64,000 nt of DNA from Candidatus Omnitrophota bacterium (lineage in GTDB: Bacteria; Omnitrophota; Gorgyraeia; Gygaellales; Profunditerraquicolaceae). The stretch is taken from the NCBI GenBank assembly GCA_029571225.1, contig JAKPTF010000097.1, positions 417-64,416 of the forward strand, given 5' to 3'. The position numbers were made by a program, and so were the translations under genes. The first letter of the stretch is position 1; the number at the start of each line of letters is the position of its first letter. The notes under the pieces are model-generated. The model saw only the letters and a program-made list of their open reading frames with translations, was not told the DNA's origin and made no database searches. Positions 33,684 through 48,699 of this stretch are shown here, in pieces.

Positions 33684-33691
33684 AAATATGC

Positions 33692-33720
33692 TTGCTATGG
33701 AGCGTAAAATTTCATATAAT
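33692..33720 (+). promoter_or_regulatory. Putative promoter of the glucan phosphorylase gene
   Basis: TTGCTA (33692-33697), 17-nt spacer, TATAAT (33715-33720). Confidence 0.5.
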
Positions 33721-33752
33721 ACTGTGCCACAGACAACAAAAGGGGTTGGCGC

Positions 33753-35762
33753 ATGCCTGGCAAGCAATTATTAACGGAATTCCTCTCGCTTGTACAGATC
33801 GACGGATTCGAGGACGTATTCATCAACGATATCGTCCACGACAAGTTTTTCGGCCTGCCTTTGGAACCCATCATCGCGGCGGAAAAACGCCTGCGCGATC
33901 CCGCCAGCCGTTCCATTGCGTATTTTTCCATGGAATACGGCCTTGCCACGAGCTTCTATAATAAATTCTCCGCGACAAAGCCCCTGCATTATAATAACAA
34001 GATACAGGAGACGGAGGTCTTTTCGAACTTCCGGCTCGCCGATTATTTCTTCACCCTTAAGACGGATTCTATCATAGACCTTCCTATATATAGCGGCGGG
34101 CTGGGTGTCCTCGCGGGGGACACGGTCAAGACCATGGCGGATTATAAGCTCCCTGTCGTGGCGATCGGCATGCTCTGGAACACCGGTTATTTCAGGCAGA
34201 AATTCTGGTTCAAATACGGCCAGATGCCCGAAGCGATGCACTGGGACCTGTATTCGTATCCCGGTCTGATCCCCCTCAAGAACAAGGTCAAGATATCTCT
34301 GAAGGACGAGGAGATATACCTTCGTTTATGGAAATATTACGTCTACAGCTACCGGCACGACGCAGTCGTGCCTTTGATCCTTCTGGATTCCAACGCCAAT
34401 GAGAACATCGAGAAGAACAGGCGGCTTACCGATCAGCTTTACCGCAGCGACAACAACTGGATCAAGATCATGCAGCGGGTCATCCTGGGCATGGGCGGAG
34501 TAGCTGCCCTTAAGGAGCTGGGCTATCAGATCGACCTGTTCCATCTTAATGAAGGCCATGCGGTCTTCGCGTTCGTTGAAAAAGCCCGCGGCCTTCCTGC
34601 CGAGGGTGTCAGGGACCTTAAAAGGCATTTCGTTTACACCTGCCATACTCCCGTTGACGCGGGCCATGACCGTTTTCCGTCGGACGAATTGAACCGTATA
34701 TTGAAACGGGAGGATTTCGAGATCACCGATACGTTCGGCAGGGATAAAGGCGGTGTCATCAATCTCACCCTGCTGTCCATGAACATTGCTTCGTGCATTA
34801 ACGCCGTTTCGCATAATCATCAGAAGGTCATGCATATCCAGTTTCCAAAATACAAAGAACAGATCAAATACGTGACAAACGGCGTGCATTCCCATACCTG
34901 GATGTCTGACCGTTTCAAGGGAGTTTTTGAAAAATTTGCAAAAGAATTCGGGGACGTCAGGGCAAATCCTATGGCGCTCTCAAGGGCGCGGGACCTGCGA
35001 GCGAACAGGGACTTCCGTCAGGCGGTCTGGGATGCCCATCAGGCGAACAAACAGGACCTGTGCGACCTGCTGGGGAAATGGAAGCTTGACAAGGACGCCT
35101 TCACGATCTGCTGGGCCCGGCGCGTCGCCGCATATAAACGGCCGAGCCTGATCCTGCAGGATGTCAAAGCGCTTGTTGAGATCGGGAAAAAATTCGGCCA
35201 GGTCCAGATAATATTCGCCGGAAAAGCGCATCCGAACGATAACCTCGGGTTTACCTTCATCAACGAGATGCTCGACCGCGTCGACGAGCTGACCGATGTA
35301 TATGATTATCTGCGGTTCATAATGCTGGAGAATTACGAGATCTCGACTGCCAAAATGCTTGTCTCGGGCGTGGACGTGTGGCTGAACAACCCTTTGCCGC
35401 CTTTCGAGGCGTCGGGCACCAGCGGCATGAAGGCGATTATGAACGCGGTGGTCCAGGTTTCGACGATCGACGGCTGGATTGCCGAGGCGACCGAAATGGA
35501 TATCGGGCGGCTGTTCGGGTATGTCAACGAAGAGGGGACGATCGGCAACGAGCACGATCTGCACATGCGCGAGGATTCGGTCATGCTCTACAAGGCCCTT
35601 GAAGAGATGGTCTCATTGTATTATCAGTCCAACAGGAATGGGGTTATGGACGTATCCTCCGCCTGGATAGACCTCATGATCAACTGCCTGGCCGCGTCAG
35701 CCCGATTCAATACGTATCGCATGCTCGATCAGTATAAATCACTTGTCTGGAACATCCCATAG
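33753..35762 (+). CDS. glgP: Alpha-glucan phosphorylase (GT35, short 'alpha-glucan family' type)
   Basis: YFSMEYGL, GGLGVLAGD and EASGTSGMK (PLP-Lys motif). 669 aa. Confidence 0.85.
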   Translation: MPGKQLLTEFLSLVQIDGFEDVFINDIVHDKFFGLPLEPIIAAEKRLRDPASRSIAYFSMEYGLATSFYNKFSATKPLHYNNKIQETEVFSNFRLADYFFTLKTDSIIDLPIYSGGLGVLAGDTVKTMADYKLPVVAIGMLWNTGYFRQKFWFKYGQMPEAMHWDLYSYPGLIPLKNKVKISLKDEEIYLRLWKYYVYSYRHDAVVPLILLDSNANENIEKNRRLTDQLYRSDNNWIKIMQRVILGMGGVAALKELGYQIDLFHLNEGHAVFAFVEKARGLPAEGVRDLKRHFVYTCHTPVDAGHDRFPSDELNRILKREDFEITDTFGRDKGGVINLTLLSMNIASCINAVSHNHQKVMHIQFPKYKEQIKYVTNGVHSHTWMSDRFKGVFEKFAKEFGDVRANPMALSRARDLRANRDFRQAVWDAHQANKQDLCDLLGKWKLDKDAFTICWARRVAAYKRPSLILQDVKALVEIGKKFGQVQIIFAGKAHPNDNLGFTFINEMLDRVDELTDVYDYLRFIMLENYEISTAKMLVSGVDVWLNNPLPPFEASGTSGMKAIMNAVVQVSTIDGWIAEATEMDIGRLFGYVNEEGTIGNEHDLHMREDSVMLYKALEEMVSLYYQSNRNGVMDVSSAWIDLMINCLAASARFNTYRMLDQYKSLVWNIP

Positions 35763-35763
35763 T

Positions 35764-36513
35764 ATGCGGTTTCCCCCAGCCATCCTTGCCGTCCTGCCGA
35801 TTATTGCGTGTTCCTGCGCGCGTGCGCCCGTAATCCCGAGCACACCGTATTCCACAGGCCCGGCTTATTCGGGGCCGTCAGCCCCGGCCATGCGCCAGGA
35901 CATGTATCATGTCGTGGGCCCTTCCGAAACGCTCTGGCGCATCAGCAAAATGTACGACGTGAAGATCGAAGACATCATGCGCGCCAACGGCCTCTCTAGC
36001 AGAGAAGTCCTTGCCCGCGGACAGCGCCTTCTGATACCCCGCGCGGCTCCCTTGCGGCCGGTTATAGCACTTTATCCTTCGTCAAAATGGAAGTATATCA
36101 TAATCCATCACAGCGCGACCGACGAAGGCACCGCCAATTCGCTGTTCGATCTGCACAACCGGCGCGGGTTCGACGGCCTCGGATATGATTTCATTATCGA
36201 TAACGGGACCGGCGGGAAACAAGACGGCCAGATCGAGGTGTCCGGGCGCTGGGTAAAACAGATAGACGGGGCGCATTGCCGGGCCGCGGGCATGAACCAT
36301 CAGGGCATAGGCATCTGTTTGGTGGGCAATTTCAGCAGGGAGCGGGTGTCCCAGAAACAAATGGATTCGCTGGTCTATCTGGTAGATCTTCTGCGCAAGT
36401 ATTACAGTGTGCCCAGAAGCCGTATTCTCGGCCACGGCCAGGTGCCGGGCGCAGCGACCGAGTGCCCGGGGCTGAAGTTTCCCTGGGACGAATTCTGGTC
36501 TAAATTGAAATAA
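35764..36513 (+). CDS. LysM-domain N-acetylmuramoyl-L-alanine amidase (Amidase_2/AmpD-like) lipoprotein
   Basis: Lipobox IIACSC. LysM YHVVGPSETLWRISKMYDVKIEDIMRANGL. Amidase_2 IIIHHSAT...GYDFIIDNG...HCRAAGMNHQGIGICLVGNF. Confidence 0.8.
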   Translation: MRFPPAILAVLPIIACSCARAPVIPSTPYSTGPAYSGPSAPAMRQDMYHVVGPSETLWRISKMYDVKIEDIMRANGLSSREVLARGQRLLIPRAAPLRPVIALYPSSKWKYIIIHHSATDEGTANSLFDLHNRRGFDGLGYDFIIDNGTGGKQDGQIEVSGRWVKQIDGAHCRAAGMNHQGIGICLVGNFSRERVSQKQMDSLVYLVDLLRKYYSVPRSRILGHGQVPGAATECPGLKFPWDEFWSKLK

Positions 36514-36534
36514 CGGAGGGAGTCTTTTTATTCT

Positions 36535-36563
36535 TTGAACTTTGACTGAAAGTGTGATATACT
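36535..36563 (+). promoter_or_regulatory. Putative promoter of the signalling operon
   Basis: TTGAAC (36535-36540), 17-nt spacer, TGA-TATACT extended -10 (36555-36563). It is flanked by the short inverted repeat ctttgaa...ttcaaag. Confidence 0.5.
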
Positions 36564-36640
36564 TTTTTCAAAGTGCGGCTTTACGACAGGAGTGAAAGGT
36601 GGCTCCGGACAAACATACGCATACAGCCCGCAGAATGGTA

Positions 36641-36664
36641 CCCAGGATATCCTCCTGGGTTTTT
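36641..36664 (+). promoter_or_regulatory. Terminator-like hairpin in the leader of the signalling operon
   Basis: Perfect 7-bp stem cccagga/tcctggg, 5-nt loop, then TTTTT. It ends 17 nt before ATG 36682. Confidence 0.45.
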
Positions 36665-36681
36665 CTATTGTTGGGGGAAAT

Positions 36682-37440
36682 ATGCCCGATAAGATATTGA
36701 TCGTCGATGATGATGCGGAATTCCGGTCAGAGCTGCGGTCGGCGCTTGATTGTTATCAGGTGGTAGAGGCATCCAGCGGCAAAGACGCCATGCATCTTCT
36801 GCGCAAGCCCAATGACATAGACGTGGTGCTTCTTGACGTTATGATGCCCGGTTTAAGCGGGACCGAGGTCCTACGGGAAATAAAGCGTTTGTCTCCCGAC
36901 CTGTCTATCGTCATGCTGACCGGCTACAGCTCAAAGGATGTAGCCGTGGAATCTTTGAAGGGCCACGCGGACGAATATATCGAAAAACCCCCGGATATCG
37001 ATAAGACCAAGGAGATCATCGATCGCCTGCTACAGAAGAAGCGGGGCGGCCCTGATGCGTGCGCTTACAGCCGCGAGGACAAGATCGAGCAGGTCAAGAG
37101 GTTCGTCGAACGCAACTACCAGAAAAAGGTGACGCTGAAGGACGCGGCGCAAGCGGTGTTTTTAAGCCCCAAATATCTCAGCAGGATTTTCAAGGAACAA
37201 ACGCGTATGGGGTTCAACGACTATAAACTTCGATTCGTTTTGATCCGCGCCAAAGAATTGCTCTCCAGGACCGGATTTACCATAAACCAGATATCCGACC
37301 AGATGGGGTATCAGAACGCCGAATCGTTCATACGGATCTTCGAGAAACTTACTGGCATGACCCCTACCGGATACCGCAAGCAATGCAGGCTTCGCAGACA
37401 AAAAATCCGCAATAACTCCTCGAAACGAAAGATAAGGTGA
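36682..37440 (+). CDS. Response regulator, REC + AraC-type HTH
   Basis: ILIVDDD, VLLDVMMPG, MLTG and IEKP form a canonical receiver. The C-terminus has an AraC HTH (ISDQMGYQNAESFIRIFEKLTGMTPTGYR). Confidence 0.85.
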   Translation: MPDKILIVDDDAEFRSELRSALDCYQVVEASSGKDAMHLLRKPNDIDVVLLDVMMPGLSGTEVLREIKRLSPDLSIVMLTGYSSKDVAVESLKGHADEYIEKPPDIDKTKEIIDRLLQKKRGGPDACAYSREDKIEQVKRFVERNYQKKVTLKDAAQAVFLSPKYLSRIFKEQTRMGFNDYKLRFVLIRAKELLSRTGFTINQISDQMGYQNAESFIRIFEKLTGMTPTGYRKQCRLRRQKIRNNSSKRKIR

Positions 37441-40199
37441 ACAGGGCTCAAAAAAAGGGGGCGGATGGGATGCGCGACCCAAAGGCAAAATGGTTCTCTG
37501 ACCGCGGCAATCCGAAGCGCCGGAGTTCCGCGCGCCTTCAGGCCGAGATGATTGATGAACTCAAGGCCCTCCTTGACGTCGATCGCGATATTATCATCAT
37601 CCGCGACATGGAGGGCCGTATTGTTTTCTGGAACCGCGGGGCGCAGGATGTCTTCGGCTGGGAAAAGGATTACGCTGTCGGCAGGCTCTACAGCGAGCTG
37701 GAGGGCATCAGGTATCCATGTCCGGCAGAGGAGATCATGCGCTGTCTTGACAGAGAGGGCAGATGGGAGGGAGAGATTACGTATGCCCCCGAGGGCCGCG
37801 ATCCGGTGTATCTTGAAAGCAGGTTGTGCGTGCAGAAGGATGATGCGGGGGTCCCGATCGGTATCATGGAGGTCCATAACAATATTTCAGACCGCAGGAA
37901 GGCTGAAAGACTCCTGCGAGCAAGCGAAGCGCACTACCGTTTGCTAACCGATAATATATCGGATATCGTGGGTATCATCGACCGGAATATGCATTTCACC
38001 TTTGTCGGCAGCAATGCAAGCCGTCTGGTAGGTTTTACCGCGGATGAGGTGATGCGCAGGGACGTTTCGGGCATGTTGACCCCTGAATCGTTCGAGCACG
38101 CCCGTAAGATTATTGCCCATCAATTCGAGATAGACGGTAGGCCTGGCCAGGATCCTGACAGGAGTTTCCTGATCGAGGTAGAGATTCTGACAAAAAACGG
38201 TGAGGCCAGGCTTTTCGAGCTGAAGGTAAACTTCATCCGCGACGAAGCGGGTGCCCCTGCGAGCCTCCTGGGCATCGGCCGCGATATAACGGCCCACAAG
38301 GCGTTAGAAAGGAAGCTTAAGGAAAACGAGAACCTATACCACTCTTTTTTGAAAAACTTTCCGGGCATTGCGTATCGCGGCCTGATAGACGGATCTGTCC
38401 TGTTCTTTGAAGGCCGGGTTGAGGAGATTACGGGGTATCGCGGCGATGATTTTTCCGCATCCAGGGTCCGCTGGAAGGACCTTATATTCCCGGAAGACCT
38501 GCCGGGAATACGGCAGTCGTGGGACCGGATCCACGAAGAGGCAGGTTGTTCCCTTGAGCGCGAATACCGCATTATTCGCAAGGACCGCCAGGTCAGATGG
38601 GTCCGTGAGCATATCCAGAACAGATCCGATGATTCCGGCAAGCCGGCCTTTGTGGAAGGCGTTATCCAGGATATAACCGATCTTAAGAAATCATATGAAG
38701 AACAGCTGTGGCTGGCGTCTTTCCCTGAACTGGACCCCCATCCGGTCGTAGAAGCCGATATCGCCGGAAATGTGTATTATATGTCCCCTGCCGCACTTGC
38801 CCTTTTCCCTGACCTTGCGGCCAAAGGCCTCAAACACGGCTATCTGTCGGGAGCCGGATGGATTCTTGACCGGATCAAGACCGAGAAACGTGAGCCCTTC
38901 ACGCGCGAGGTCGAGGTAAACGGCCTCTGGTACTTGCAGAAGATTTTTGCCGTAGAGAATGGCACGCGGTTGAGAATATACGGATCGGATATAAGCGAAA
39001 GCAAGCTGATAACCCAGCGCCTGCGCGCGGTCAATCAACAACTGATGGATATCATAGACTTCCTGCCTGACGCGACGTTCGTCGTCGACCGGCACAGGCG
39101 CATCATCGCCTGGAACAGGGCGCTGGAAGAGATGACCGGCGCGAAAAAAGAGGAGATGGTTGGCAGGGGGGACTACGCATACGCGGTCCCGTTTTACGGC
39201 AAGGCTCGGCCGATTGCGCTCGATCTGCTCTTTGAACCCGATAAAGAGACAGAATCCCTATATACGTATGTAAAAAGAAAAGATACCCGCCTTGTAGCCG
39301 AAGTTTTCTTGCCCAGGCTCAATCACGGCAAGGGTCTTTTTGTATGGGTTAATGTCGCGCCTTTCTACGACGAGAAAGGCGCGCTCATAGGCGCTATCGA
39401 ATCCATCCGCGATATCACGGAGCATAAAGAGGCGGAGGCGATCCTGCGCCAGGACCGCCAGGCGTTCGAGCAGCTGGTAAAGAGCAAGACCGAGGAGCTG
39501 CTGCGTGTGCAGAAGGAACTGGCGGATTCCAGGCATCTCTCCGAGATCGGCGCGCTGGCGGCGACCATCGCGCATGAACTGCGCAATCCCCTGGCTGCGA
39601 TCAGGACAGCAGCCTACAACATCCGGCGGAAATCCGCAGACAGCAGGCTTGCGAGCCATCTGGACAATATAGACAAAAAGATCATAGAAAGCGATCAGAT
39701 CATTAATAATCTTCTGTCATATTCCCGCATCAAGACGCCCAGGCTCGAGGCGGTCAGGATCCGTATGATTCTGGAGGAGTGTCTGAAGGCAGCCGCTGAC
39801 CGTTTTGCCAAGTATAAGGTTAAGGTACGGCTGAAATGTGCCTGCGGGAAAGATGATATGATCCTCGCCGATCCTTTACATATGAGGGAGTTGTTCAATA
39901 ATATCCTCAACAACGCATATGAGGCGCTTGAAAACAAGAAAGGTATCATCACGATCACGGCCGATTATGAGCCCAGGAGCGTTTTTACGGTTTCTTTCAC
40001 GGATAACGGGGCCGGCATAAGCCCCGACATCCTGGAAAAAATATCGCGGCCTTTCTTTACGACAAAATCAAAAGGCACGGGGTTGGGCCTGGCCGTATGC
40101 CATCAGCTGCTTGCTTTGCATAACGGCAGCATGCAGATCAAGAGCGCGATAGGAAAGGGAACAACCGTGACCGTTACCCTGCCCGTAGGTATCCAATGA
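37437..40199 (+). CDS. Cytoplasmic sensor histidine kinase with about five PAS-like domains
   Basis: GTGA overlap with the upstream gene. Repeated PAS patterns. H-box IAHELRNPLAAI, N-box NNILNNAYEA, G1 DNGAGI, G2 GTGLGLAV. 920 aa with no TM helix. Confidence 0.85.
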   Translation: MNRAQKKGADGMRDPKAKWFSDRGNPKRRSSARLQAEMIDELKALLDVDRDIIIIRDMEGRIVFWNRGAQDVFGWEKDYAVGRLYSELEGIRYPCPAEEIMRCLDREGRWEGEITYAPEGRDPVYLESRLCVQKDDAGVPIGIMEVHNNISDRRKAERLLRASEAHYRLLTDNISDIVGIIDRNMHFTFVGSNASRLVGFTADEVMRRDVSGMLTPESFEHARKIIAHQFEIDGRPGQDPDRSFLIEVEILTKNGEARLFELKVNFIRDEAGAPASLLGIGRDITAHKALERKLKENENLYHSFLKNFPGIAYRGLIDGSVLFFEGRVEEITGYRGDDFSASRVRWKDLIFPEDLPGIRQSWDRIHEEAGCSLEREYRIIRKDRQVRWVREHIQNRSDDSGKPAFVEGVIQDITDLKKSYEEQLWLASFPELDPHPVVEADIAGNVYYMSPAALALFPDLAAKGLKHGYLSGAGWILDRIKTEKREPFTREVEVNGLWYLQKIFAVENGTRLRIYGSDISESKLITQRLRAVNQQLMDIIDFLPDATFVVDRHRRIIAWNRALEEMTGAKKEEMVGRGDYAYAVPFYGKARPIALDLLFEPDKETESLYTYVKRKDTRLVAEVFLPRLNHGKGLFVWVNVAPFYDEKGALIGAIESIRDITEHKEAEAILRQDRQAFEQLVKSKTEELLRVQKELADSRHLSEIGALAATIAHELRNPLAAIRTAAYNIRRKSADSRLASHLDNIDKKIIESDQIINNLLSYSRIKTPRLEAVRIRMILEECLKAAADRFAKYKVKVRLKCACGKDDMILADPLHMRELFNNILNNAYEALENKKGIITITADYEPRSVFTVSFTDNGAGISPDILEKISRPFFTTKSKGTGLGLAVCHQLLALHNGSMQIKSAIGKGTTVTVTLPVGIQ

Positions 40200-40594
40200 A
40201 AAAGCCCAGGATATTGCTCGTAGATGATGATGAAGAGATCTGCGAAGAGATCGGAGGACTTCTTAAAGATTCAGGATTCAAAATCATGATCGCACATGAA
40301 GGCAGCGCCGCCGTCAGGCTGCTCGAAGGCAATAGCTTTGATCTATTGATCCTTGATCTGAAAGTGCCCGGGATGTCAGGTATCGAGATACTCCGGCATG
40401 TCAGGGGCAGGCGCCTGCCCGTCAAGGTCCTGATTGTGACCGGTAAACCGTTGAAAGACATGTATGAACAGGACGAATCTCCGCTACCCGAAGATCCAGA
40501 GCAGGATGAACTGTTCCAGTTAGCCGACGGCTTTGTCGGAAAACCGTTTGAAATTGAGGTTCTGCTTGCCCGCATCAAAACGCTCACCTTATAA
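40196..40594 (+). CDS. Single-domain response regulator (REC only)
   Basis: ATGA overlap with the upstream gene. ILLVDDD, LLILDLKVPG, IVTG and GKPF, with an acidic insertion before the last strand. Confidence 0.85.
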   Translation: MKKPRILLVDDDEEICEEIGGLLKDSGFKIMIAHEGSAAVRLLEGNSFDLLILDLKVPGMSGIEILRHVRGRRLPVKVLIVTGKPLKDMYEQDESPLPEDPEQDELFQLADGFVGKPFEIEVLLARIKTLTL

Positions 40595-40721
40595 AGGCAA
40601 CCCGGGTAGAAAAAAGTCAGAAAAAAGGTGAAACCTGCCATAGACAACCCTCAGTATGTAATTTAATATATGTAAGTCGGAGTTATATATCTTTTTAAAA
40701 TTAGAGCGAAAGGATTGCCAA

Positions 40722-41111
40722 ATGGCCCAAAAAAGCATCCTTATAGTTGATGACGATCCGGAGTTCCTCCAGGAAATGCAGGAAACGCTGCGGCTCAGCG
40801 GGTATAAGGTGGATTCCCTGGACAGGGCAAATTCCGTTGTGGACCACGCGGCAAAAAATCCTCCAGACCTTATTCTGCTGGACTTGAAAATGTCCGGCAT
40901 GACCGGGTTTGAAGTTATCAAAGGCCTGCGGGGATCTCCCCGGACCGCTCAAATACCGATCATTGCGATGTCCGGGTATTTCAGTGAGCAGAAGGATTGC
41001 ACATTATTCGATTTTTTCCAGATAAAGCAATGCCTCCAGAAACCGTTTCATCCGCTTGATGTGATATCCCATATCGAAAGCACGCTTAAAGATGCCGACA
41101 TCTCTATCTGA
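40722..41111 (+). CDS. Single-domain response regulator (REC only)
   Basis: ILIVDDD, LILLDLKMSG, AMSG and QKPF. Paralogue of the gene at 42239-42616. Confidence 0.85.
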   Translation: MAQKSILIVDDDPEFLQEMQETLRLSGYKVDSLDRANSVVDHAAKNPPDLILLDLKMSGMTGFEVIKGLRGSPRTAQIPIIAMSGYFSEQKDCTLFDFFQIKQCLQKPFHPLDVISHIESTLKDADISI

Positions 41112-42222
41112 ACCGCCACCCTGTGCGTATCATGCATGCGCCCCGCAGGAGAGACAGCGTATTAATGAGCTCACCAGGAGCTTTGTAAAAGGGTCCCTGA
41201 GGATCCTGATGAGGGCCCTCGGTTCCGGGGCAGGGGCACTTTTCCTTTTCGATCCTGAAGCGCGTTCGCTTGTCCTTGAATCTTTCCTCGGAAGTTTGCC
41301 GGATAGCGCTGTGAGGTATTCCTGGCCGGGTAGAAGGCCGTGTTTGTCGATCCCGCTTCTTGCCGGAGGGTATTTGTTCGGCCTGGTGAAAATCGGAACC
41401 CGGCAGGACGGCGCAAGATTCTCGGCCCAGGACCTGCGGTATGCCAGCACGCTGTGCGGATATATCTGCAGAATAGTAGAGGACCAGTTACGCTTCAGTC
41501 TCCAGCGCGGCGAGCTCGATAGAGCCCGTTGCGAAAAGATGGCGCTTGAAAAATATGCTTCGGTCGGCAGCCTCGCTGCGGGTATCGTGGGCCAGATCAA
41601 CAGCCCCCTTGACGCCGCGCTTCGTTACACCGGCCTTGTGCGCCCGCATCTCGACTTTGACGGTCGCGGCTCCGAATATCTGTCCCTGGTGCGCGCCGGC
41701 CTTGAACATATTTCTGATATTACCGCATCGCTATCCGGCCTGTACGCTTTGCCTGGTGACCCTGCGGTTACCCTGGACGTCGTTGATATTCATGGCCTGA
41801 TCGATGAGGCGGTTTCGGTGTTCCGCAGTCAGCGCCGGCATCAGGTGAGGATCAACGTCTGTCACGGCGGGCCGCTGCTGGTCCGCGCTGACAGGGCGCT
41901 GCGCCATGTTTTCACCAATATCATCAAAAATGCCTTTGAGGCGATGCCCGGCGGCGGCGAACTGAACATCAGCTCCGAGATCAAACAGGCAGGGCTGCAG
42001 ATCGTGTTTCATGATACGGGATGCGGCATAACGAGCCATGATCAAAAGAGGCTTTTTGAGCCTTTTTTCACGACAAAACCGGAAAAAGCCGGCAACGGGA
42101 TCGGCCTTTCGTTCTGCAAGGATATCATAGAGCGCTACGGCGGGCGTATCGTCGTAAAAAGTGCTCCTGGTGAGGGAAGCACGTTTACCGTTCTGTTTCC
42201 CAGGTCTGTGCTTGTACAGTAG
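41092..42222 (+). CDS. GAF-like + histidine-kinase-like protein lacking the phospho-accepting His (pseudo-kinase with an intact ATP-binding domain)
   Basis: The H-box position reads LAAGIVGQINSPL instead of ..AHEI.NPL (Gly codon at 41590-41592). The N-box (NIIKNAFEAM), G1 (HDTGCGI), F (FEPFFTTK) and G2 (GNGIGLS) are intact. The start is uncertain (41092 or downstream). Confidence 0.7.
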   Translation: MPTSLSEPPPCAYHACAPQERQRINELTRSFVKGSLRILMRALGSGAGALFLFDPEARSLVLESFLGSLPDSAVRYSWPGRRPCLSIPLLAGGYLFGLVKIGTRQDGARFSAQDLRYASTLCGYICRIVEDQLRFSLQRGELDRARCEKMALEKYASVGSLAAGIVGQINSPLDAALRYTGLVRPHLDFDGRGSEYLSLVRAGLEHISDITASLSGLYALPGDPAVTLDVVDIHGLIDEAVSVFRSQRRHQVRINVCHGGPLLVRADRALRHVFTNIIKNAFEAMPGGGELNISSEIKQAGLQIVFHDTGCGITSHDQKRLFEPFFTTKPEKAGNGIGLSFCKDIIERYGGRIVVKSAPGEGSTFTVLFPRSVLVQ

Positions 42223-42238
42223 GAAAGGGGCGTGTGAG

Positions 42239-42616
42239 GTGGCGAAGGGGCGTATTTTGATAGTTGACGACGATAAAGAATTCAGGGAAGAGCTTCGGGA
42301 AACGCTGGACCTGTCAGGTTATGAGGTGATCGAAGTCGAGGATGCCCGGGTGGTGCAGGATACAGCAAGCCACACGAGCCCGGATGTGATCGTCCTTGAC
42401 CTGAAAATGGACGATATGAACGGTTTTGAGGTGGCCGAAGAACTTAAGCGTTTCACCTCGACCGTGAGCATCCCTGTCATCGCTATGACAGGATATTTCA
42501 GAGAGGACGAGCATGCCCCGCTCATGAACATCTGCGGAATCACCAAGTGCATCAAAAAGCCCTTCAATCCGCTTGACGTCATCGCCGCAATCGAAGCGGC
42601 GATGCACGGCGTCTAA
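42239..42616 (+). CDS. Single-domain response regulator (REC only)
   Basis: GTG start after AGGAAAGGGG. ILIVDDD, VIVLDLKMDD, AMTG and KKPF. The track ORF starts at 42161. Confidence 0.8.
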   Translation: MAKGRILIVDDDKEFREELRETLDLSGYEVIEVEDARVVQDTASHTSPDVIVLDLKMDDMNGFEVAEELKRFTSTVSIPVIAMTGYFREDEHAPLMNICGITKCIKKPFNPLDVIAAIEAAMHGV

Positions 42617-42627
42617 TCTGATTTCTA

Positions 42628-42656
42628 TTGCCTAAAAAATCCCCCCGCGATATAAT
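42628..42656 (+). promoter_or_regulatory. Putative internal promoter for the GGDEF gene
   Basis: TTGCCT (42628-42633), 17-nt spacer, TATAAT (42651-42656). Confidence 0.45.
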
Positions 42657-42682
42657 ATTCGAATATAACCCGAGGAGGTTCC

Positions 42683-43585
42683 ATGGACCGTGAGAAGATC
42701 ATTGTGGTTCGGGCAGGCCCGTATGTATCCAAGACGATGAACGAGAGCTTGAAGGATTACGATATATATAATCTGGAGTCGCTCGATAAGGCCCAGGAAC
42801 TTTACAAAAGCGGCAATTTTCATACCATCGTGACCGAATTGGACCCGAAAGAGGGCAATGCGGTCGAAATGGTCACCAAACTGCAGGCGAATGATTCCGA
42901 CGTCCCGATCATCGTGGTAACCACGCACGATTCTGTCCCTGTCGCCGTAGAGGCTATGAAGGCTGGTGCGTATGACTATATCACGACGCCTTTCAATCTT
43001 GACGAGCTGAAGCTTGTGGTACAGCATGCGCTGGAGCGAAAAAAGCTGAAAGAGGAGGTTAAGGAAAAACGTCATTTCCAGGAAATGGCTATTACGGACG
43101 GCCTGACCATGATATACAACCGCGCGTATTTCGACGAATTGCTCCGCAGGGAAGAGGACCGAGCTCGCCGGTATCCGCAAAAATTCTCTCTTCTCATGAT
43201 GGATCTGGACGATTTCAAGAAATACAACGATTCATACGGCCATACCGCCGGGGATTTAATCTTGAAGCATGTCGCACAGCTTTTTCAGAGGACGATCCGC
43301 ACCTCGGATTTTGTGGCGCGGTACGGAGGGGAGGAATTCGTTATCATCACGCCGCATACGGATAAGATCCATGCGTCGGTCCTGGCGTCTAGGCTTCTCT
43401 CAATGGTGAACAGGTCCGTGATTCAGGTCAATGAGAAAACACAGCTGTCGGTATCCATTTCTATCGGCCTGGCCACGTTCGGGGACGACGCCACGACCAG
43501 GGACGTATTGGTCCAGAGCGCTGACAAGGCGCTGTACCAGGCCAAGCAGCTGGGGAAGAACCGGGTTTGCCTTTTTGGGACATGA
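42683..43585 (+). CDS. Diguanylate cyclase: degenerate receiver domain + GGDEF (GGEEF, with RxxD I-site)
   Basis: GGEEF at 43325-43339 with RTSD five residues upstream. The receiver fold lacks the N-terminal acidic pair (IIVVRAG) and the conserved Lys (YITTPF). Confidence 0.85.
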   Translation: MDREKIIVVRAGPYVSKTMNESLKDYDIYNLESLDKAQELYKSGNFHTIVTELDPKEGNAVEMVTKLQANDSDVPIIVVTTHDSVPVAVEAMKAGAYDYITTPFNLDELKLVVQHALERKKLKEEVKEKRHFQEMAITDGLTMIYNRAYFDELLRREEDRARRYPQKFSLLMMDLDDFKKYNDSYGHTAGDLILKHVAQLFQRTIRTSDFVARYGGEEFVIITPHTDKIHASVLASRLLSMVNRSVIQVNEKTQLSVSISIGLATFGDDATTRDVLVQSADKALYQAKQLGKNRVCLFGT

Positions 43586-43598
43586 ATATCCGCCACCG

Positions 43599-44426
43599 AT
43601 GACCGCCGCCAGCTTTGCGAGCATGAGCTACCGGCAGTGGGATGGGGCAGGAGAGAATGCCGTGCTTCTACTTGTCCACGGCCTCGGCGGGCATACGGGC
43701 AGGTGGGAGCCTCTGGCCGTGTTTTGTGCGCAGCGGGGCATCTCTTCCTACGCGCTTGCCCTGAGGGGTTTTGGTGACGCCCCAGGGATCCCGGGGCACA
43801 TCGATTCGTTCGGCACATACCTCTCGGATATAGAAGCCCTCGCCGGCGTCATCCGTGACCGGCATCCGCATCACAAAATATACCTTCTGGGCGAAAGCCT
43901 GGGCGGCCTCATCTGCTTTCTTGCCGCCGCCCGTATTCCCGGCCTTTGTTCCGGACTGATCTGCCTGTCGCCTGCGTTCAAGAGCACGCTTAAGATCGGC
44001 TCTGCGGCGCGCGCGGGCATCCTGTTCTCCGCTTTTTTCTCGCCGGAGCGCCAGTTTACCATGCCGTTTTCTTTGACATGCTGCAGCCGTGATGAATCGC
44101 TCGTGGAACGTTTTGAAAAAGACACCCGCGAGCACCGGTTTGCTTCCGCGCGGCTGCTTTTCGAGACGAGGCTTGGCCAGGCGACTGCGCGGCGCCTGAG
44201 GGGCAAAATAACCGTGCCTGTTCTCTTTCTGGTGAGCGGCCGCGATACGATGGTCAGTACAGAGGAGAGCGTCAGGATTTTCAAAGCGTTGAACGTGAAA
44301 GACAAAACCATAAACGTTTACCCGGACATGTATCATGCGCTTTCGATCGATCTGGGCAGGGAAAAAGTTTTTGAGGATATCATCGGGTGGGTTAATGCCC
44401 ATTCATTAAAGGGGGCCGAGGCATGA
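43599..44426 (+). CDS. Alpha/beta hydrolase (lysophospholipase/monoacylglycerol-lipase-like)
   Basis: LLVHGLGGHTGRW, nucleophile elbow GESLGG, and a C-terminal ...MYHAL (His). The track ORF starts at 43431. Confidence 0.7.
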   Translation: MTAASFASMSYRQWDGAGENAVLLLVHGLGGHTGRWEPLAVFCAQRGISSYALALRGFGDAPGIPGHIDSFGTYLSDIEALAGVIRDRHPHHKIYLLGESLGGLICFLAAARIPGLCSGLICLSPAFKSTLKIGSAARAGILFSAFFSPERQFTMPFSLTCCSRDESLVERFEKDTREHRFASARLLFETRLGQATARRLRGKITVPVLFLVSGRDTMVSTEESVRIFKALNVKDKTINVYPDMYHALSIDLGREKVFEDIIGWVNAHSLKGAEA

Positions 44427-45922
44427 AATATATACTGGCGATTGACCAGGGTACGACCGGCAGCCGGGCCGTCGCATATGACGCCCGGGGCCGCTGTGTG
44501 GCCAGCTCCTACGAGGAGTTCAGGCAGTATTTCCCTGCGCCTGGCTGGGTGGAACATGATCCGCAGGAGATCTGGCGCAGCGTCAAGAATTCGGTAGTTG
44601 CTGTGCTGAAGAAAATCCCTTCGTCATCCATCGCGGCCATAGGCATAACCAATCAGCGTGAGACCACGGTAATATGGGACCGAGATACCGGCACCCCTGT
44701 ATACCGCGCAATCGTATGGCAATGCCGCAGGACAGCAGGCAGGTGCAGGGCGCTGCGGGCACGCGCGGGCATGAGCGAATGGTTCCGCGCCAGGACCGGC
44801 CTTCCGATAGACGCATATTTCTCTGCCACGAAGATCGAGTGGATATTAAAGAACGTTCCTGGTGCCAGCAAGAAAGCGGCCGCGGGAAGGCTGTGCTTCG
44901 GCACGACGGACAGCTGGGTATTATGGAAGCTTACCGGCGGCAGGGTTCACGCCACAGATTACACGAATGCGTCCCGCACCATGCTTTTTAATATAGCCGG
45001 TCTGGAGTGGGACAGGGATATCCTCAAGAAATTCTCGGTACCATTAGGTATGCTGCGGTCTGTCAAACGTTCATCGGGCGTGTTCGGACACACGGCCGGT
45101 TCAGGGCCACTTCCCCCTGGCATTCCCATATCGGGTATAGCAGGCGATCAGCAGGCGGCGTTGTTCGGCCAGGCATGCTTTGAACCGGGATCCGTGAAGA
45201 ACACATACGGCACCGGCGCATTTCTGCTCTTGAACACGGGGGCCAGGCGCATCATGTCGGGATACGGCCTGATAACCACGCTCGCGTGCGGCGCTGACGG
45301 CGGCCCGGTGTATGCCCTGGAAGGGCCGATATTCATCGCCGGGGCAGCGGTCCAATGGTTCCGCGACGGGCTTAAGGTCATACGCGCGGCAGCCGATTCC
45401 GAAAAGATCGCCTATTCCGTAAAAGATACGGCAGGCGTGTATTTCGTTCCGGCGCTGGTCGGCATGGGAGCGCCGTACTGGGACCCTGACTGCAGGGGTA
45501 CGATAACGGGCATTACGCGGGGCACTACCGCGGCGCATATCGTGCGCGCCGGCCTTGAGGCAATGTGTTTTCAAACCCGTGACGTTCTTGATGCGATGCG
45601 CCGGGATTCAGGCCTCAAAATCGATCAATTAAAGGTCGACGGAGGCGCTGCGAAGAACGATTTCATTCTCCAGTTTCAGGCTGATATCACCGGATTGCGG
45701 GTCATCCGGCCGGTCGTGGTCGAAAGCACTTCGCTGGGCGCGGCGTATCTGGCAGGGCTCGCTGTGCGTTTCTGGAAAGGGACCGGCGAGATTTCCGCGT
45801 GCTGGCGCAGGGATAAAGTTTTCATCCCGCGCATGGCAGCCTCCAGAGCCAGGTCCTTATATTCCGGATGGCGCAAGGCAGTCAGCATGACCTTATCCGG
45901 GCAAAGAAAGGATCTCTTGTGA
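44423..45922 (+). CDS. glpK: Glycerol kinase
   Basis: YILAIDQGTTGSRA, GITNQRETT, GDQQAALFGQ and VDGGAAKND. ATGA overlap with the upstream gene. Confidence 0.92.
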   Translation: MKYILAIDQGTTGSRAVAYDARGRCVASSYEEFRQYFPAPGWVEHDPQEIWRSVKNSVVAVLKKIPSSSIAAIGITNQRETTVIWDRDTGTPVYRAIVWQCRRTAGRCRALRARAGMSEWFRARTGLPIDAYFSATKIEWILKNVPGASKKAAAGRLCFGTTDSWVLWKLTGGRVHATDYTNASRTMLFNIAGLEWDRDILKKFSVPLGMLRSVKRSSGVFGHTAGSGPLPPGIPISGIAGDQQAALFGQACFEPGSVKNTYGTGAFLLLNTGARRIMSGYGLITTLACGADGGPVYALEGPIFIAGAAVQWFRDGLKVIRAAADSEKIAYSVKDTAGVYFVPALVGMGAPYWDPDCRGTITGITRGTTAAHIVRAGLEAMCFQTRDVLDAMRRDSGLKIDQLKVDGGAAKNDFILQFQADITGLRVIRPVVVESTSLGAAYLAGLAVRFWKGTGEISACWRRDKVFIPRMAASRARSLYSGWRKAVSMTLSGQRKDLL

Positions 45923-47373
45923 GATCGTGCGACGCGCTTATCATCGGCGGAGGGGTCACCGGCACCGCAATCGCCAGAGAACTTTCGCAGTATCGCCTGA
46001 AGGTAATTTTGTGCGAAAAGGAAGAAGAGCTTGCGTTCGGCGTATCAAAATCGAACAGCGGTATCATCCATCCGGGCACGCAGAACGTCCCGGGGTCTTT
46101 GAAAGGCAGGCTGTGCGTCGAAGGTAATGCCCTGACGAAAGCGATCGCGCGCGAGCTGGATGTCGATTTCAAACAGGTCGGCGAATTGATCGTGGCGTTC
46201 TCGCAGTCCGAAGTCGGGCGCCTTATCCGGATAAAAGAGGATGCGCAGCGTCTAGGCGTTAAGGGCCTCCGCATGGTCGATAATGCGTGGTTGAGGGATC
46301 ACGAGCCGAATCTGAATCCCGATATACCCGCGGCGCTTTTTGCACCTAGCGCAGGCATCATCAGCCCGTACCGCTGGGTTTACGCCCTTGCCCTTAACGC
46401 ACAGCAGAACGGCGTCGAGATAATGACCCGCACTCGTGTGGCTGCTATCGAACGGCTTTCAGGAGCGGGCCGCGGCGGAATGTTTTTGCGCGTCATGACC
46501 ACATCGGCAGAATATGACGCGCGGTTCGTCATTAATTGCGCCGGATTGCACGCGGACGCGGTTGCGCGCATGGCGGGGATCGACGACTTTTCCATAAGGC
46601 CGCGCAAAGGCGAGGAATTCATTCTGGATAAGAAACGCGAGCATCTGACGAATCATCTGATTTTCCCGCTGCCGACCCCGGTATCGAAAGGCGTGCTCAT
46701 GATAAAGACCTCTGACGGTAATCCTATGATCGGGCCGTCAGCTTTAGATACAGAGGATAAAGACGACCTTTCAACGACCGAGGGAGGCCTGCGCACGGTG
46801 CTGGCTGATGCTCGCAGGCTCGTGCCTTCGGTCAGCGAGCGGGATATTATAGCTTATTTTGCCGGGTTGAGGCCCGTGGCAGGAGATGATTTCATCATAC
46901 GCCACGAGGATCGCGCTTCTGGAATGGTCACGGTCGCCGGCATACAGTCGCCGGGGCTGACGTGCGCGCCGGCCATAGCAAAGCTGGTCAGCCGGCTGCT
47001 CAAGGAGCACGGCCTGGACCTGCGCAGGAAAATATTCTTTCGACGCCATCGCCGCGCGATGAACCATCTGTTCTCGATACCGCTTTCCAGGACTGCCCGT
47101 CTTGTGCGCCTGGACCCCTCGTACGGCGATATCGTGTGCAGATGCGAGATGGTATCTGCCCGGGAGATATCGGACGCGATCGCAGAGGGCGCTACCACGA
47201 TGGACGGGATCAAGTTCAGGACGCGAGCGCAGGCAGGCAGGTGCCACGGTAGCTTCTGTACGTGCCGATTGATGAAAATCCTCGCGGATGAGACCGGCAG
47301 GAAGGTCATTGAGGTTACAAAGCGCGGCGAGTGTTCAGAGATCGTGTTAAAGGACAGGGGAGATGATCAATAA
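45919..47373 (+). CDS. FAD-dependent glycerol-3-phosphate dehydrogenase-like oxidoreductase with a BFD-type [2Fe-2S] domain
   Basis: GTGA overlap with the upstream gene. DALIIGGGVTGTAIAREL dinucleotide fold. C-terminal CRCEMVSAREISDAI...CHGSFC. Confidence 0.8.
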   Translation: MRSCDALIIGGGVTGTAIARELSQYRLKVILCEKEEELAFGVSKSNSGIIHPGTQNVPGSLKGRLCVEGNALTKAIARELDVDFKQVGELIVAFSQSEVGRLIRIKEDAQRLGVKGLRMVDNAWLRDHEPNLNPDIPAALFAPSAGIISPYRWVYALALNAQQNGVEIMTRTRVAAIERLSGAGRGGMFLRVMTTSAEYDARFVINCAGLHADAVARMAGIDDFSIRPRKGEEFILDKKREHLTNHLIFPLPTPVSKGVLMIKTSDGNPMIGPSALDTEDKDDLSTTEGGLRTVLADARRLVPSVSERDIIAYFAGLRPVAGDDFIIRHEDRASGMVTVAGIQSPGLTCAPAIAKLVSRLLKEHGLDLRRKIFFRRHRRAMNHLFSIPLSRTARLVRLDPSYGDIVCRCEMVSAREISDAIAEGATTMDGIKFRTRAQAGRCHGSFCTCRLMKILADETGRKVIEVTKRGECSEIVLKDRGDDQ

Positions 47374-48340
47374 GGACCTGGTAATCGTCGGCGGGGGGCC
47401 TGCCGGCATGGCAGCGGCATTGAGTGCCCGCGATGCGGGCGTGCGCGATATCCTGCTTCTTGAACGCGACCAATATCTGGGCGGAATACTCAACCAGTGC
47501 ATCCACACTGGATTCGGCATATATCATTTCAAGGAGCTTTTGACCGGGTGCGAATACGCCGGAAGGTTCATTTCCCTGGTTGAACGGTCGCGAGAGATAG
47601 ACGTAAGCCTCAAGTCCTTCGTCGTCAGGCTGACCAATGACCGCGTTTTGACCTTTTTGAAACCCGGCAAGATGGAGACCGTTCGGGCAAAGGCCCTTAT
47701 CATGGCAACGGGATGCCGCGAGCGGACGAGGGAGATGATACACATCCCGGGGACGCGTCCGGCGGGCGTCTTCTCCGCGGGGCTAGCGCAGAAGCTGATC
47801 AATATCGAGGGCCTTTTGCCCGGCAAGGAAGTTGTTATTGTCGGCTCCGGAGATATCGGGCTTATCATGGCGCGCAGGTTTACCCTCGAAGGCGCGCGCG
47901 TCAAGGCCGTTATAGAGATCCAGAAGCAGAGCCGCGGGTTGATGCGCAACGTGGTCCAGTGCGTGCATGATTTCGATATCCCGCTGTATTTCAGCCACCG
48001 CATATCCCGCATCAGCGGCCGTGACAGGGTCGAGAAGGTCGAGGCGGTCCGCGTTGACGAACAGGGAAATGACGTGGACGGTTCGCGCTTCGAAATACTC
48101 TGTGACACGATACTGGTTTCCGTGGGATTGATCCCGGAGAACGAGCTTATAGAGATGGCAGGCGCAAAGATTGACAGCGCGACCAACGCCCCTCTCTCAA
48201 AGGAGCTAAACACTACGTCGATCCCGGGCGTGTTCGCGTGCGGTAATTGTTACCGCGTGTATGATCTTGTAGATTCGGTGACCAGAGACGCGCAGGTTTG
48301 CGGCCGCATGGCTGCGGAGTTCCTGGCAGGGGCGCGATGA
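47363..48340 (+). CDS. Pyridine-nucleotide-disulfide-type FAD oxidoreductase (second subunit of the G3P dehydrogenase-like set)
   Basis: LVIVGGGPAGMAAAL and a second GxGxxG (VVIVGSGDIGL). 11-nt overlap with the upstream gene. Confidence 0.7.
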   Translation: MINKDLVIVGGGPAGMAAALSARDAGVRDILLLERDQYLGGILNQCIHTGFGIYHFKELLTGCEYAGRFISLVERSREIDVSLKSFVVRLTNDRVLTFLKPGKMETVRAKALIMATGCRERTREMIHIPGTRPAGVFSAGLAQKLINIEGLLPGKEVVIVGSGDIGLIMARRFTLEGARVKAVIEIQKQSRGLMRNVVQCVHDFDIPLYFSHRISRISGRDRVEKVEAVRVDEQGNDVDGSRFEILCDTILVSVGLIPENELIEMAGAKIDSATNAPLSKELNTTSIPGVFACGNCYRVYDLVDSVTRDAQVCGRMAAEFLAGAR

Positions 48341-48699
48341 AGAAAGAAATGATCTGCATAGAATGCCCGAAAGGGTGCAGGATGGAAGTGTATTACGGGG
48401 ACGGGAAAACCGTAGAAGTCAACGGCAACATGTGCCCGAGGGGCAGAGAATACGCCGCCTCCGAGATTGAAGATCCGAGGCGCATATTGACCTCGTCGGT
48501 CCTGTGCGAAGGGCTGGACCTGCGCATGCTGCCTGTCAGGACAGATAAGCCTATTCCTAAGCAGGCGCTTTTGCAGGCAATGGAGCGGATCAGAAAGATC
48601 AGGGTCAAGGAACCAGTGCGAGCGGGAGATGTAATCGCGCAGGACTTTTTCGGCGCGAACCTTATCGCCACACGCAGTGCTACCAGGGAGAACGTATGA
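48337..48699 (+). CDS. DUF1667-domain protein
   Basis: ATGA overlap with the upstream gene. ICIECPKGCRMEV...GNMCPRGREYA...EDPRRILTSSV is the DUF1667 pattern that accompanies this oxidoreductase pair. Confidence 0.75.
   Translation: MKKEMICIECPKGCRMEVYYGDGKTVEVNGNMCPRGREYAASEIEDPRRILTSSVLCEGLDLRMLPVRTDKPIPKQALLQAMERIRKIRVKEPVRAGDVIAQDFFGANLIATRSATRENV

Follow-up and report, generated by a model that had tools for sequence, protein, structure and literature searches.

The histidine pseudokinases known to date are few and come mostly from single model organisms, namely DivL, PsmA, NifL, and RedE. Here we describe HK*, the name we give to the His-less histidine-kinase-like protein encoded by the open reading frame (ORF) 41092..42222 (+) in a 64,000-nucleotide stretch of DNA from a Candidatus Omnitrophota bacterium (assembly GCA_029571225.1, contig JAKPTF010000097.1, positions 417 to 64,416), the whole of which is referred to below as the window. 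HK* has 376 amino acids, consists of a truncated GAF domain, a dimerization and histidine-phosphotransfer (DHp) hairpin, and an HATPase_c domain, in that order, and is encoded between two single-domain receivers, REC1 and REC2. Our preferred reading, to which we give a probability of about one half, is that HK* is a non-phosphorylatable kinase relative that docks REC1 and REC2, and that it is probably a nucleotide-dependent phospho-receiver phosphatase or clamp; most likely, HK* would control the receivers instead of supplying phosphate to them. Its history is best read as that of a selected descendant of a bona fide GAF-HisKA kinase that would have served both flanking receivers: the lineage lost its His and the adjacent Glu stepwise, and the subclade with Gly at the His site also lost most of the GAF sensor, the DHp helix signature being kept. 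What is new here is the Omnitrophota cassette, with the order REC-AraC, PAS-kinase, (REC0), REC1, HK*, REC2, and the staged decay of the H-box within it.

In mode of action, HK* is by analogy most like the engineered kinase-minus/phosphatase-plus mutants of HisKA kinases and RedE. In CrdS, the H371A variant keeps phosphatase activity, giving CrdA~P a half-life of 2.6 min compared with 53.5 min for CrdA~P alone, and the E372A/D/G/Q variants are kinase-dead and phosphatase-competent; the Asn or Thr four residues after the His (His+4) is the phosphatase residue, and an acidic residue at His+1 is needed for autokinase activity (PMC3510030). Mutations of the His end phosphotransfer and spare phosphatase activity, and in EnvZ and HK853 the ATP-binding domain together with nucleotide boosts the phosphatase through contacts between the ATP lid and the receiver (PMC7005713). 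HK* has the same DHp family as the CrdS/NtrB-type H-to-A and E-to-A mutants, which are kinase-dead and keep phosphatase activity (PMC3510030), and AtoS, ZraS, and NtrB-like proteins match it best in NCBIfam and PDB. The natural protein may thus be said to resemble a fixed version of such a mutant, although the mutants are laboratory-made and have Asn or Thr at His+4, whereas HK* has Ser there and has lost its sensor core. RedE is a histidine-kinase-like protein without autokinase activity that dephosphorylates the single-domain receiver RedF~P in a four-component operon (PMC2755868). The Myxococcus RedCDEF system is like the HK* cassette in combining one true kinase, one non-autophosphorylating kinase-like protein, and single-domain or dual receivers (PMC2755868), but RedE takes a phosphoryl group from RedD, whereas HK* is without the canonical acceptor, and the two have no specific sequence kinship.

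In the retention of its ATP pocket, as far as residue conservation can tell, HK* is nearer NifL and the plant protein CSK than DivL or PsmA. NifL of Azotobacter vinelandii has a DHp-like region and a GHKL domain with an intact pocket and is neither kinase nor phosphatase (PMC10372690), which would make it the best precedent for a conserved ATP pocket without phosphotransfer. It differs from HK* in its PAS-FAD sensors and its non-receiver partner NifA: HK* has neither, no PAS domain being found in it by Pfam and no NifA-like gene in a Pfam survey of its neighbourhood. The similarity of the two proteins is confined to the catalytic and ATP-binding (CA) region (TIGR02938, E 2.3e-15, far below the cut-off). 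CSK is likewise His-less, with Y/Q/E at the His site, and binds TNP-ATP (PMC5054060), although its G1 and G2 boxes are modified. PsmA of Streptomyces, also His-less, has E/D/Q/V/Y at the His site by lineage (PMC12963549), comparable to the G/E/Q/P found here, but its ATP motifs are gone, as is the E/DxxT/N motif (PMC12963549); neither CSK nor PsmA is flanked by a cognate receiver pair. DivL of Caulobacter crescentus has the class I fold, a replaced acceptor His, and a single-domain receiver, DivK, as partner, and binds DivK~P on the receiver-docking face of its DHp domain (PMC4211667). It is unlike HK* in having Tyr rather than Gly at the His site, in an affinity for an ATP analogue about 19-fold below that of typical kinases, in its occluded pocket, and in its PAS domains (PMC4211667), and HK*, with all ATP-binding residues and a GAF stub, is not its orthologue. 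The DivL-type comparison made in the original prediction therefore holds for the loss of the His and fails for the ATP pocket (PMC4211667): because DivL binds the ATP analogue poorly and the HK* family keeps every nucleotide-binding residue, DivL is only a loose analogy.

The features of the HK* gene, with amino acid positions of the 376-residue form, are as follows.

41092..42222, + strand: HK* gene (ORF), its ATG at 41092 overlapping the REC1 stop by 20 nt
41167..41424, + strand: truncated GAF domain, amino acids 26-111 (sub-threshold Pfam matches to GAF_2/GAF_3/GAF; AlphaFold2 model)
41425..41745, + strand: signalling helix and DHp helical hairpin, amino acids 112-218 (AlphaFold2 secondary structure; alignment to DHp domains)
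41572..41622, + strand: degenerate H-box LAAGIVGQINSPLDAAL, residues 161-177
41590..41592, + strand: Gly167, codon GGC, in the phospho-acceptor His column
41602..41604, + strand: Ser171, codon AGC, at His+4, the Thr/Asn position for HisKA phosphatase activity (PMC3510030)
41893..42204, + strand: HATPase_c domain with intact N, G1, F, and G2 boxes (Pfam 6.9e-25, over the cut-off)

The segment 41581-41610 encodes G164-L173 (GIVGQINSPL), and the original prediction that Gly stands here in place of the H-box His, and Gln (codon CAG, 41593-41595; Gln168) in place of the Glu at His+1, is upheld on each line of evidence for the register. A phmmer search against PDB pairs the HK* segment 'laagivgqinspl' with LAAGVAHEIRNPL of ZraS and LAASISHEIRNPL of KinB, and in family alignments of 28 to 61 sequences the G167 column is His in 41/41 canonical relatives. 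The profile comparison that had been proposed gives the same register: the native DHp segment has no match to Pfam HisKA, HisKA_2, HisKA_3, or HWE even at E<=10, and reversion of both residues in silico (G167H+Q168E) produces a HisKA match (E=0.0012) in which the restored His falls on the profile His position. The full protein likewise has no HisKA_2, HisKA_3, HWE, or H-kinase_dim match at E<=1, and no HisKA-type domain. HK* thus lacks both the His and the acidic His+1 residue of class I HisKA kinases (Gly167, Gln168), and has their DHp hairpin and CA fold and descends with bona fide kinases from a common ancestor. On present sequence evidence, HK* is without a phospho-acceptor His at the canonical site, and phosphorylation there is not expected. 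The original prediction would have been overturned by another conserved His in the DHp domain, such as the one in LVRPHL, but that residue, H185, is Gln in 4/10 orthologues; H206 is present in the window protein only, and H272, the sole clade-invariant His, sits in the CA domain. Use of some other acceptor, which the original prediction had allowed, is disfavoured because the residue at the His site varies by cassette lineage among G, E, Q, and P and no clade-wide Ser, Thr, Tyr, or His substitute is found. An anti-sigma Ser kinase of the SpoIIAB/RsbW kind was also considered and rejected, HK* having a full DHp hairpin and the cassette no STAS gene.

The ATP-binding domain is as complete as the H-box is degenerate. 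All four boxes that had been noted are present, namely the N-box FTNIIKNAFEAM, G1 (HDTGCGI), the F-box (FEPFFTTK), and G2 (GNGIGLSF). Residues N276, N280, D308, G310, G312, F322, F325, and K329 show 100% conservation both in the cassette clade (20 sequences) and among the canonical relatives (41 sequences), and G334, G336, and G338 are conserved wherever a sequence extends that far (19/19; the relative P0011 ends earlier). The G1-G2 stretch, which contains the ATP lid, is 26-27 residues long in the 25 sequences inspected. The nucleotide pocket of HK* thus appears to be complete, with an ATP lid of normal length; conserved residues and normal G1-G2 length are unlike the weak, occluded site of DivL, and at the sequence level the protein has the NifL-like combination of an intact GHKL pocket without phosphotransfer chemistry.

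The Gly is shared by orthologues: every member of the orthologous clade (11/11) has it at the His site, with identities reaching down to about 40% (P0121), and so does each of the close homologues P0002-P0010 (47-83% identity). Its codon is GGC in the window and in loci L005 and L001, and GGG in L086. An uninterrupted ORF is present, at 36-83% identity, in several independent samples and assemblies, an identical HK* sequence occurs on several contigs, and the pairwise ratio of nonsynonymous to synonymous substitution rates (dN/dS) lies at 0.18-0.30 for each of the three parts (N-terminal, DHp, and CA), with dS between the window and L001 at 1.45. These data indicate that Gly167 is not an error and that HK* is under purifying selection. 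Ser171 at His+4 is found in 11/11 Gly-clade members and is retained in both the Gly and the Glu lineages; its codon is AGC/AGT in the window, L005, and L001 and TCG in L086 and L090, and since these codon families are not interconvertible, selection on the Ser itself can be argued. The Gly-clade changes H167G, N171S, and N181G are coordinated shifts to smaller residues, and by helical periodicity we infer that the three positions lie on one face of helix 1. A separate observation concerns P0011 (340 amino acids on a 1.6-kb contig), a Gly-clade relative in which Glu takes the His site, the H-box is scrambled (VAADLVEQIESIIAAVRRY), and the C-terminus stops inside the F-box (LFTPFLLQKPRFR); this copy may be truly in decay, or the assembly may be at fault.

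The family history of HK* was reconstructed from distant cassette members found by an exhaustive profile search, column statistics being taken on 20 cassette-clade and 41 canonical sequences. A word-indexed protein search with the cassette profile missed P0121, P0124, and P0132 and added P0267 and more canonical relatives; a scan of GTDB species genomes with the clade profile returned, among the matches listed, only generic kinases of <=35% identity, the patterns being too generic. HK* is most closely related to Omnitrophota GAF-HisKA kinases. In a neighbor-joining tree built with the H-box columns removed, the cassette sequences form one clade (83-90% bootstrap) whose sister group is canonical GAF-HisKA-HATPase kinases. 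At the His site, the cassette clade has G11 H5 E2 Q1 P1 (n=20), compared with H41 in the sister clade (n=41); at His+1 it has E7 Q4 R3 H2 K2 S1 A1 compared with E39 Q2, and at His+4 S13 N5 A1 G1 compared with N39 S2. Because the His site and His+1 vary while the ATP-site residues are 100% kept, the relaxation is specific to the residues of autophosphorylation.

The individual members suggest that the H-box of the clade decays in stages, HE -> HQ/HS/HH -> G/E/Q/P. The His-bearing members comprise a P0128-like sequence (L098) with H-E, P0126 with H-Q, P0123 with H-S, with fragments of REC1 and REC2 type on either side in L092, and P0125/P0267 with H-H, where L093 has REC1 upstream and a REC2-like start downstream; the evidence for flanking receivers in L092, L093, and L098 is partial, their contigs being shorter than 2 kb. 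Among the His-less members, P0121 has Gly and P0132 Pro, both in a syntenic cassette; P0124 has Glu, together with a full GAF domain, in a syntenic cassette on a 1.6-Mb contig; and P0129 has Gln. The linked REC1 genes of L090 (Glu lineage) and L093 (H-H lineage) are 71-72% identical. This REC1 similarity suggests more than one loss of the His, with the Glu lineage separate from the Gly lineage, although the count of independent losses is uncertain because the inner nodes have only 31-67% bootstrap. As a side observation, in each of the three sister-kinase loci examined (P0017, P0013, and P0026, in L002-L004) genes for a sigma54 NtrC-type regulator and for a PocR-GAF protein come after the kinase gene, with PEP-CTERM-domain genes in L002 and L004, rpoN in L003 and L004, and type IV pilus genes in L003; these loci look like a PrsK/PrsR-like exosortase-associated system in Omnitrophota.

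How, then, might such a protein work? Under the phosphatase-or-clamp reading, an HK* dimer would dock REC1 and/or REC2 on its DHp domain, and the nucleotide-ordered ATP lid would add to the interface. The two partners were correctly recognised in the original prediction: the ORFs at 40722 and 42239 encode receiver paralogues of 49% identity, with full phospho-acceptor sites, that are conserved neighbours of HK*. Because HK* cannot donate phosphate, it would act on receivers phosphorylated by others, the source being either the neighbouring PAS kinase, which is the obvious candidate, or acetyl phosphate. HK* could then serve as a nucleotide-stimulated phospho-receiver phosphatase, an option absent from the original prediction, in which Ser171, at the Thr/Asn position, would place the water; alternatively, it could be a clamp that sequesters the phospho-receivers. 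The net effect would be a tuning of the PAS-kinase phosphate that reaches the AraC-type regulator. Several points weigh against this reading. At His+4, replacement of Asn with Thr leaves partial activity, whereas Ala, Gln, and Asp are dead, and Ser is not among the variants reported (PMC3510030). In the Pro/Gln branch (P0132, P0129), His+4 is Gly/Ala although the ATP site and the receivers are retained, so that phosphatase chemistry is not the common function of the whole cassette clade. DivL, although His-less, binds the phospho-receiver DivK~P and stabilises rather than hydrolyses it (PMC4211667). Lastly, the usual partner-choice positions of the DHp domain, read directly, are not alike: the PAS kinase has A,A,T,A,N there, and HK* has D,A,R,Y,L.

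The missing His+4 phosphatase residue of the Pro/Gln branch also speaks for a DivL-like reverse signalling, in which HK* would be non-enzymatic, read the phosphorylation state of REC1/REC2 through its DHp domain, and relay it allosterically, for example to the PAS kinase or to a pseudo-receiver-GGDEF protein encoded downstream. HK* and DivL are both His-less class I kinases beside single-domain receivers, REC1 and REC2 have sub-threshold NCBIfam matches to a DVU0259/DivK-type model, and DivL binds DivK~P by its receiver-docking surface while being neither kinase nor phosphatase (PMC4211667). That HK* would bind a phosphorylated receiver on its DHp domain is supported, indirectly, by the constant adjacency of the genes, their overlap, and the conservation of DHp helix 1. 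Nevertheless, the DivL pocket is occluded and binds an ATP analogue poorly (PMC4211667) and PsmA is without ATP motifs (PMC12963549), whereas the invariant ATP site of HK* is not obviously needed for pure docking; the output of DivL is through PAS domains, whereas the N-terminal sensor of HK* is a shrinking stub, and no downstream partner of HK* is identifiable. We consider such reverse signalling rather unlikely. If the pocket is instead given the leading part, the HK* family could be a nucleotide-gated receiver clamp, with the ATP/ADP pocket as its only input (energy charge, as in NifL) and the DHp domain as its output, capturing or dephosphorylating the two receivers. This is a speculative proposal that we hold to be unlikely, and were it true, HK* would set the partition of PAS-kinase phosphate among four receivers and the AraC-type regulator, and the graded series HE -> HQ/HS/HH -> G/E/Q/P would be a living record of the change from kinase to pseudokinase. 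A NifL-like energy sensor in a stricter sense, whose GHKL pocket would sense the ADP/ATP ratio and whose nucleotide state would set the silencing of REC1/REC2, draws on the binding of ADP/ATP by the NifL GHKL domain, which reaches its partner-binding conformation with ADP and is neither kinase nor phosphatase (PMC10372690), on the retention of the HK* pocket though His and sensor are lost, and on the position of the cassette between glycogen-metabolism genes upstream and glycerol-catabolism genes downstream. It would tie the cassette to the energy and carbon state of the cell, but it argues by analogy alone, the partner of NifL is not a receiver domain, and a gene neighbourhood is no proof of a regulatory link; we regard it as improbable.

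The same invariance of the ATP-Mg-binding residues and of the whole ATP lid would be expected if the CA domain were still catalytic, so that HK* paired with another kinase (a canonical GAF-kinase paralogue or the PAS kinase) and phosphorylated the His of that partner within the heterodimer, or acted as a Ser/Thr/Tyr kinase on the receivers or on some other substrate. DHp helix 1 is still very close to that of the canonical paralogue clade, and plant CSK and some eukaryotic kinase relatives bind ATP without the His (PMC5054060). This is, however, difficult to reconcile with the free variation of His+1 in the cassette clade (E/Q/R/H/K/S/A) and with the absence of a new clade-wide Ser, Thr, Tyr, or His in the DHp domain; in addition, the PAS kinase has an intact CA domain of its own, and CSK showed no autophosphorylation (PMC5054060). 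A catalytic role of this kind seems to us improbable. That HK* is a functionless decaying relic, or that faulty sequencing or alignment hides a true acceptor at another place, is suggested by the erosion of both sensor and H-box and by P0011, with its early end and scrambled H-box, but is scarcely credible in view of the dN/dS of 0.18-0.30 in every domain, the invariant ATP site, the use of two Gly codons, the intact ORF in multiple samples, the conserved synteny, the recurrence of the same sequence on several contigs, and a register confirmed three ways.

A His-less kinase alone is unsurprising, and the useful part of this system is the intact ATP site together with the graded decay series in one cassette. 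Total loss of the acceptor with a perfect ATP pocket in HK* sets a need for nucleotide apart from a need for autophosphorylation in a class I kinase, and the presence of canonical, half-decayed, and His-less versions in one cassette, with the same two receivers, provides a comparative set for the order in which activities are lost, namely autokinase, phosphotransfer, phosphatase, and binding. A literature search on these proteins found no paper, and the NCBI name of the protein cluster of the window is 'HAMP domain-containing sensor histidine kinase [Candidatus Omnitrophota bacterium]'. With the "sensor histidine kinase" label and the late starts in public annotation, pathway reconstructions for Omnitrophota would miscount HK* proteins as phosphodonors. 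Public gene calls begin internally and too late, at 292 amino acids (JGI) and 337 amino acids (NCBI HQJ15978.1); the ATG at 41092 appears to be the true start of the 376-amino acid form because the N-terminus, MPxS..E, is conserved, being kept in L001, L005, and P0004. The 20-nt overlap of REC1 and HK* (41092-41111 in the window) is found likewise in the P0004 contig and L086.

The AlphaFold2 model of HK* has an overall predicted local distance difference test score (pLDDT) of 79. Its N-terminal domain is a small alpha/beta unit of one helix (26-43) and four strands (pLDDT about 80-93 except in the loop 69-81), and alignment with full-GAF relatives places about 35 residues of the GAF core as missing. 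A long helix (112-186), which bears G167, and a return helix (191-218) follow, and then a normal CA domain. The DHp domain aligns with those of ZraS, KinB, ThkA, and AtoS. NCBIfam matches to AtoS (2.1e-38), ZraS, and KinD over amino acids 144-371 are far under the equivalog cut-offs; phmmer against PDB gives ZraS at 6.5e-23, DivL at a generic kinase-level 2.3e-16, and SpoIIAB weakly at about 1e-4. Foldseek with the model against PDB returns ordinary class I kinases (YF1-type chimeras, ZraS, HK853, KinB, and DivL 4q20), and these matches do not separate the candidate mechanisms. Cys122-x3-Cys126 in the signalling helix (LCxxxCRIVEDQ; 41455-41469) and Cys342 are invariant across the Gly clade, Cys122 being present in 18/20 cassette members compared with 11/40 canonical relatives; these cysteines could be a redox or metal site in place of the lost GAF pocket.

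The other genes of the cassette in the window are listed below.

36592..37440, + strand: REC-AraC response regulator (Pfam); probable start at ATG 36682, giving 252 amino acids
37437..40199, + strand: multi-PAS HisKA/HATPase_c kinase (Pfam HisKA 2.7e-12) with intact H-box IAHELRNPLAAI
40196..40594, + strand: REC0, single-domain receiver, sharing 4 nt with the end of the PAS-kinase gene
40722..41111, + strand: REC1, single-domain receiver (Pfam 4.2e-21), with intact D12/D13/D57/S87/K109 equivalents
42239..42616, + strand: REC2, single-domain receiver with GTG start (Pfam 1.5e-22) and intact phospho-site
42683..43585, + strand: pseudo-receiver-GGDEF protein (Pfam GGDEF 6.2e-48; reads GGEEF), an accessory cassette gene found in some loci only

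Of the seven genes in 36592-43585, six overlap or abut a neighbour, and a gap of 127 nt lies between REC0 and REC1. The cassette order given above is found in the window, in L001 and L005, in the P0004 and P0007 contigs, and also in L086/87, L088/89, and L090/91; HK* abuts its neighbours or overlaps them by 4-35 nt in most syntenic loci, REC1 is directly 5' of HK* in every locus examined, and REC0 is missing in L086/L087 only. The PAS kinase, the sole canonical phosphodonor in the cassette, is syntenic in all loci with enough flank. The REC-AraC protein, whose orthologues have 252-254 amino acids, is likely the transcriptional output. REC0, REC1, REC2, and the AraC receiver all carry the D12/D13/D57/T-S87/K109 set, and REC2 orthologues are 98/92/83/69/62% identical compared with 83/66/41/35/37% for HK* in the same loci.

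On the 5' side, the window has glgC, glycogen phosphorylase, and a LysM amidase (32454-36513), and on the 3' side (43431-49907) an alpha/beta hydrolase (Hydrolase_4, lipase-like), an FGGY (glycerol-type) kinase, a DAO/BFD dehydrogenase, Pyr_redox_2, DUF1667, and MFS genes. In the loci with enough flank, the cassette likewise lies 3' of glycogen phosphorylase (with glgC and the LysM amidase where the contig reaches) and 5' of the Hydrolase_4 gene, which is followed by the FGGY kinase, DAO/BFD, and so on where the contig extends. The regulated target of the cassette is likely carbon-storage or glycerol metabolism. A scan of 36300-44500 for promoters and terminators gave counts near the shuffle expectation.

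Some smaller observations on the receivers may be added. In REC0, about 25 extra residues of acidic character (…DMYEQDESPLPEDPEQDELFQLADG…) are inserted between beta4 and beta5. At the Tyr106 switch position, Cys is found in REC2 of all loci and Cys or Tyr in REC1, and the two proteins have in common a C-terminal KPFxPLD[VI]I motif and the helix 1 sequence EFxxELxETLxLSGY. Helix 1 of REC2 is also similar to that of the AraC receiver (EFRSELRSALD), a likeness that hints at competition for one kinase. The REC-GGDEF protein was considered as an obligatory partner of HK* and rejected, being absent in the P0007 contig, L086, L088, and L090. Its receiver has Arg/Gln-Ala at D12-D13, Glu at Asp57, and Thr at Lys109, so that the operon of the window encodes both a His-less kinase and an Asp-less receiver, and the same pseudo-receiver state is found in the orthologues of L001 (6273-7175) and L005 (9340-10242).

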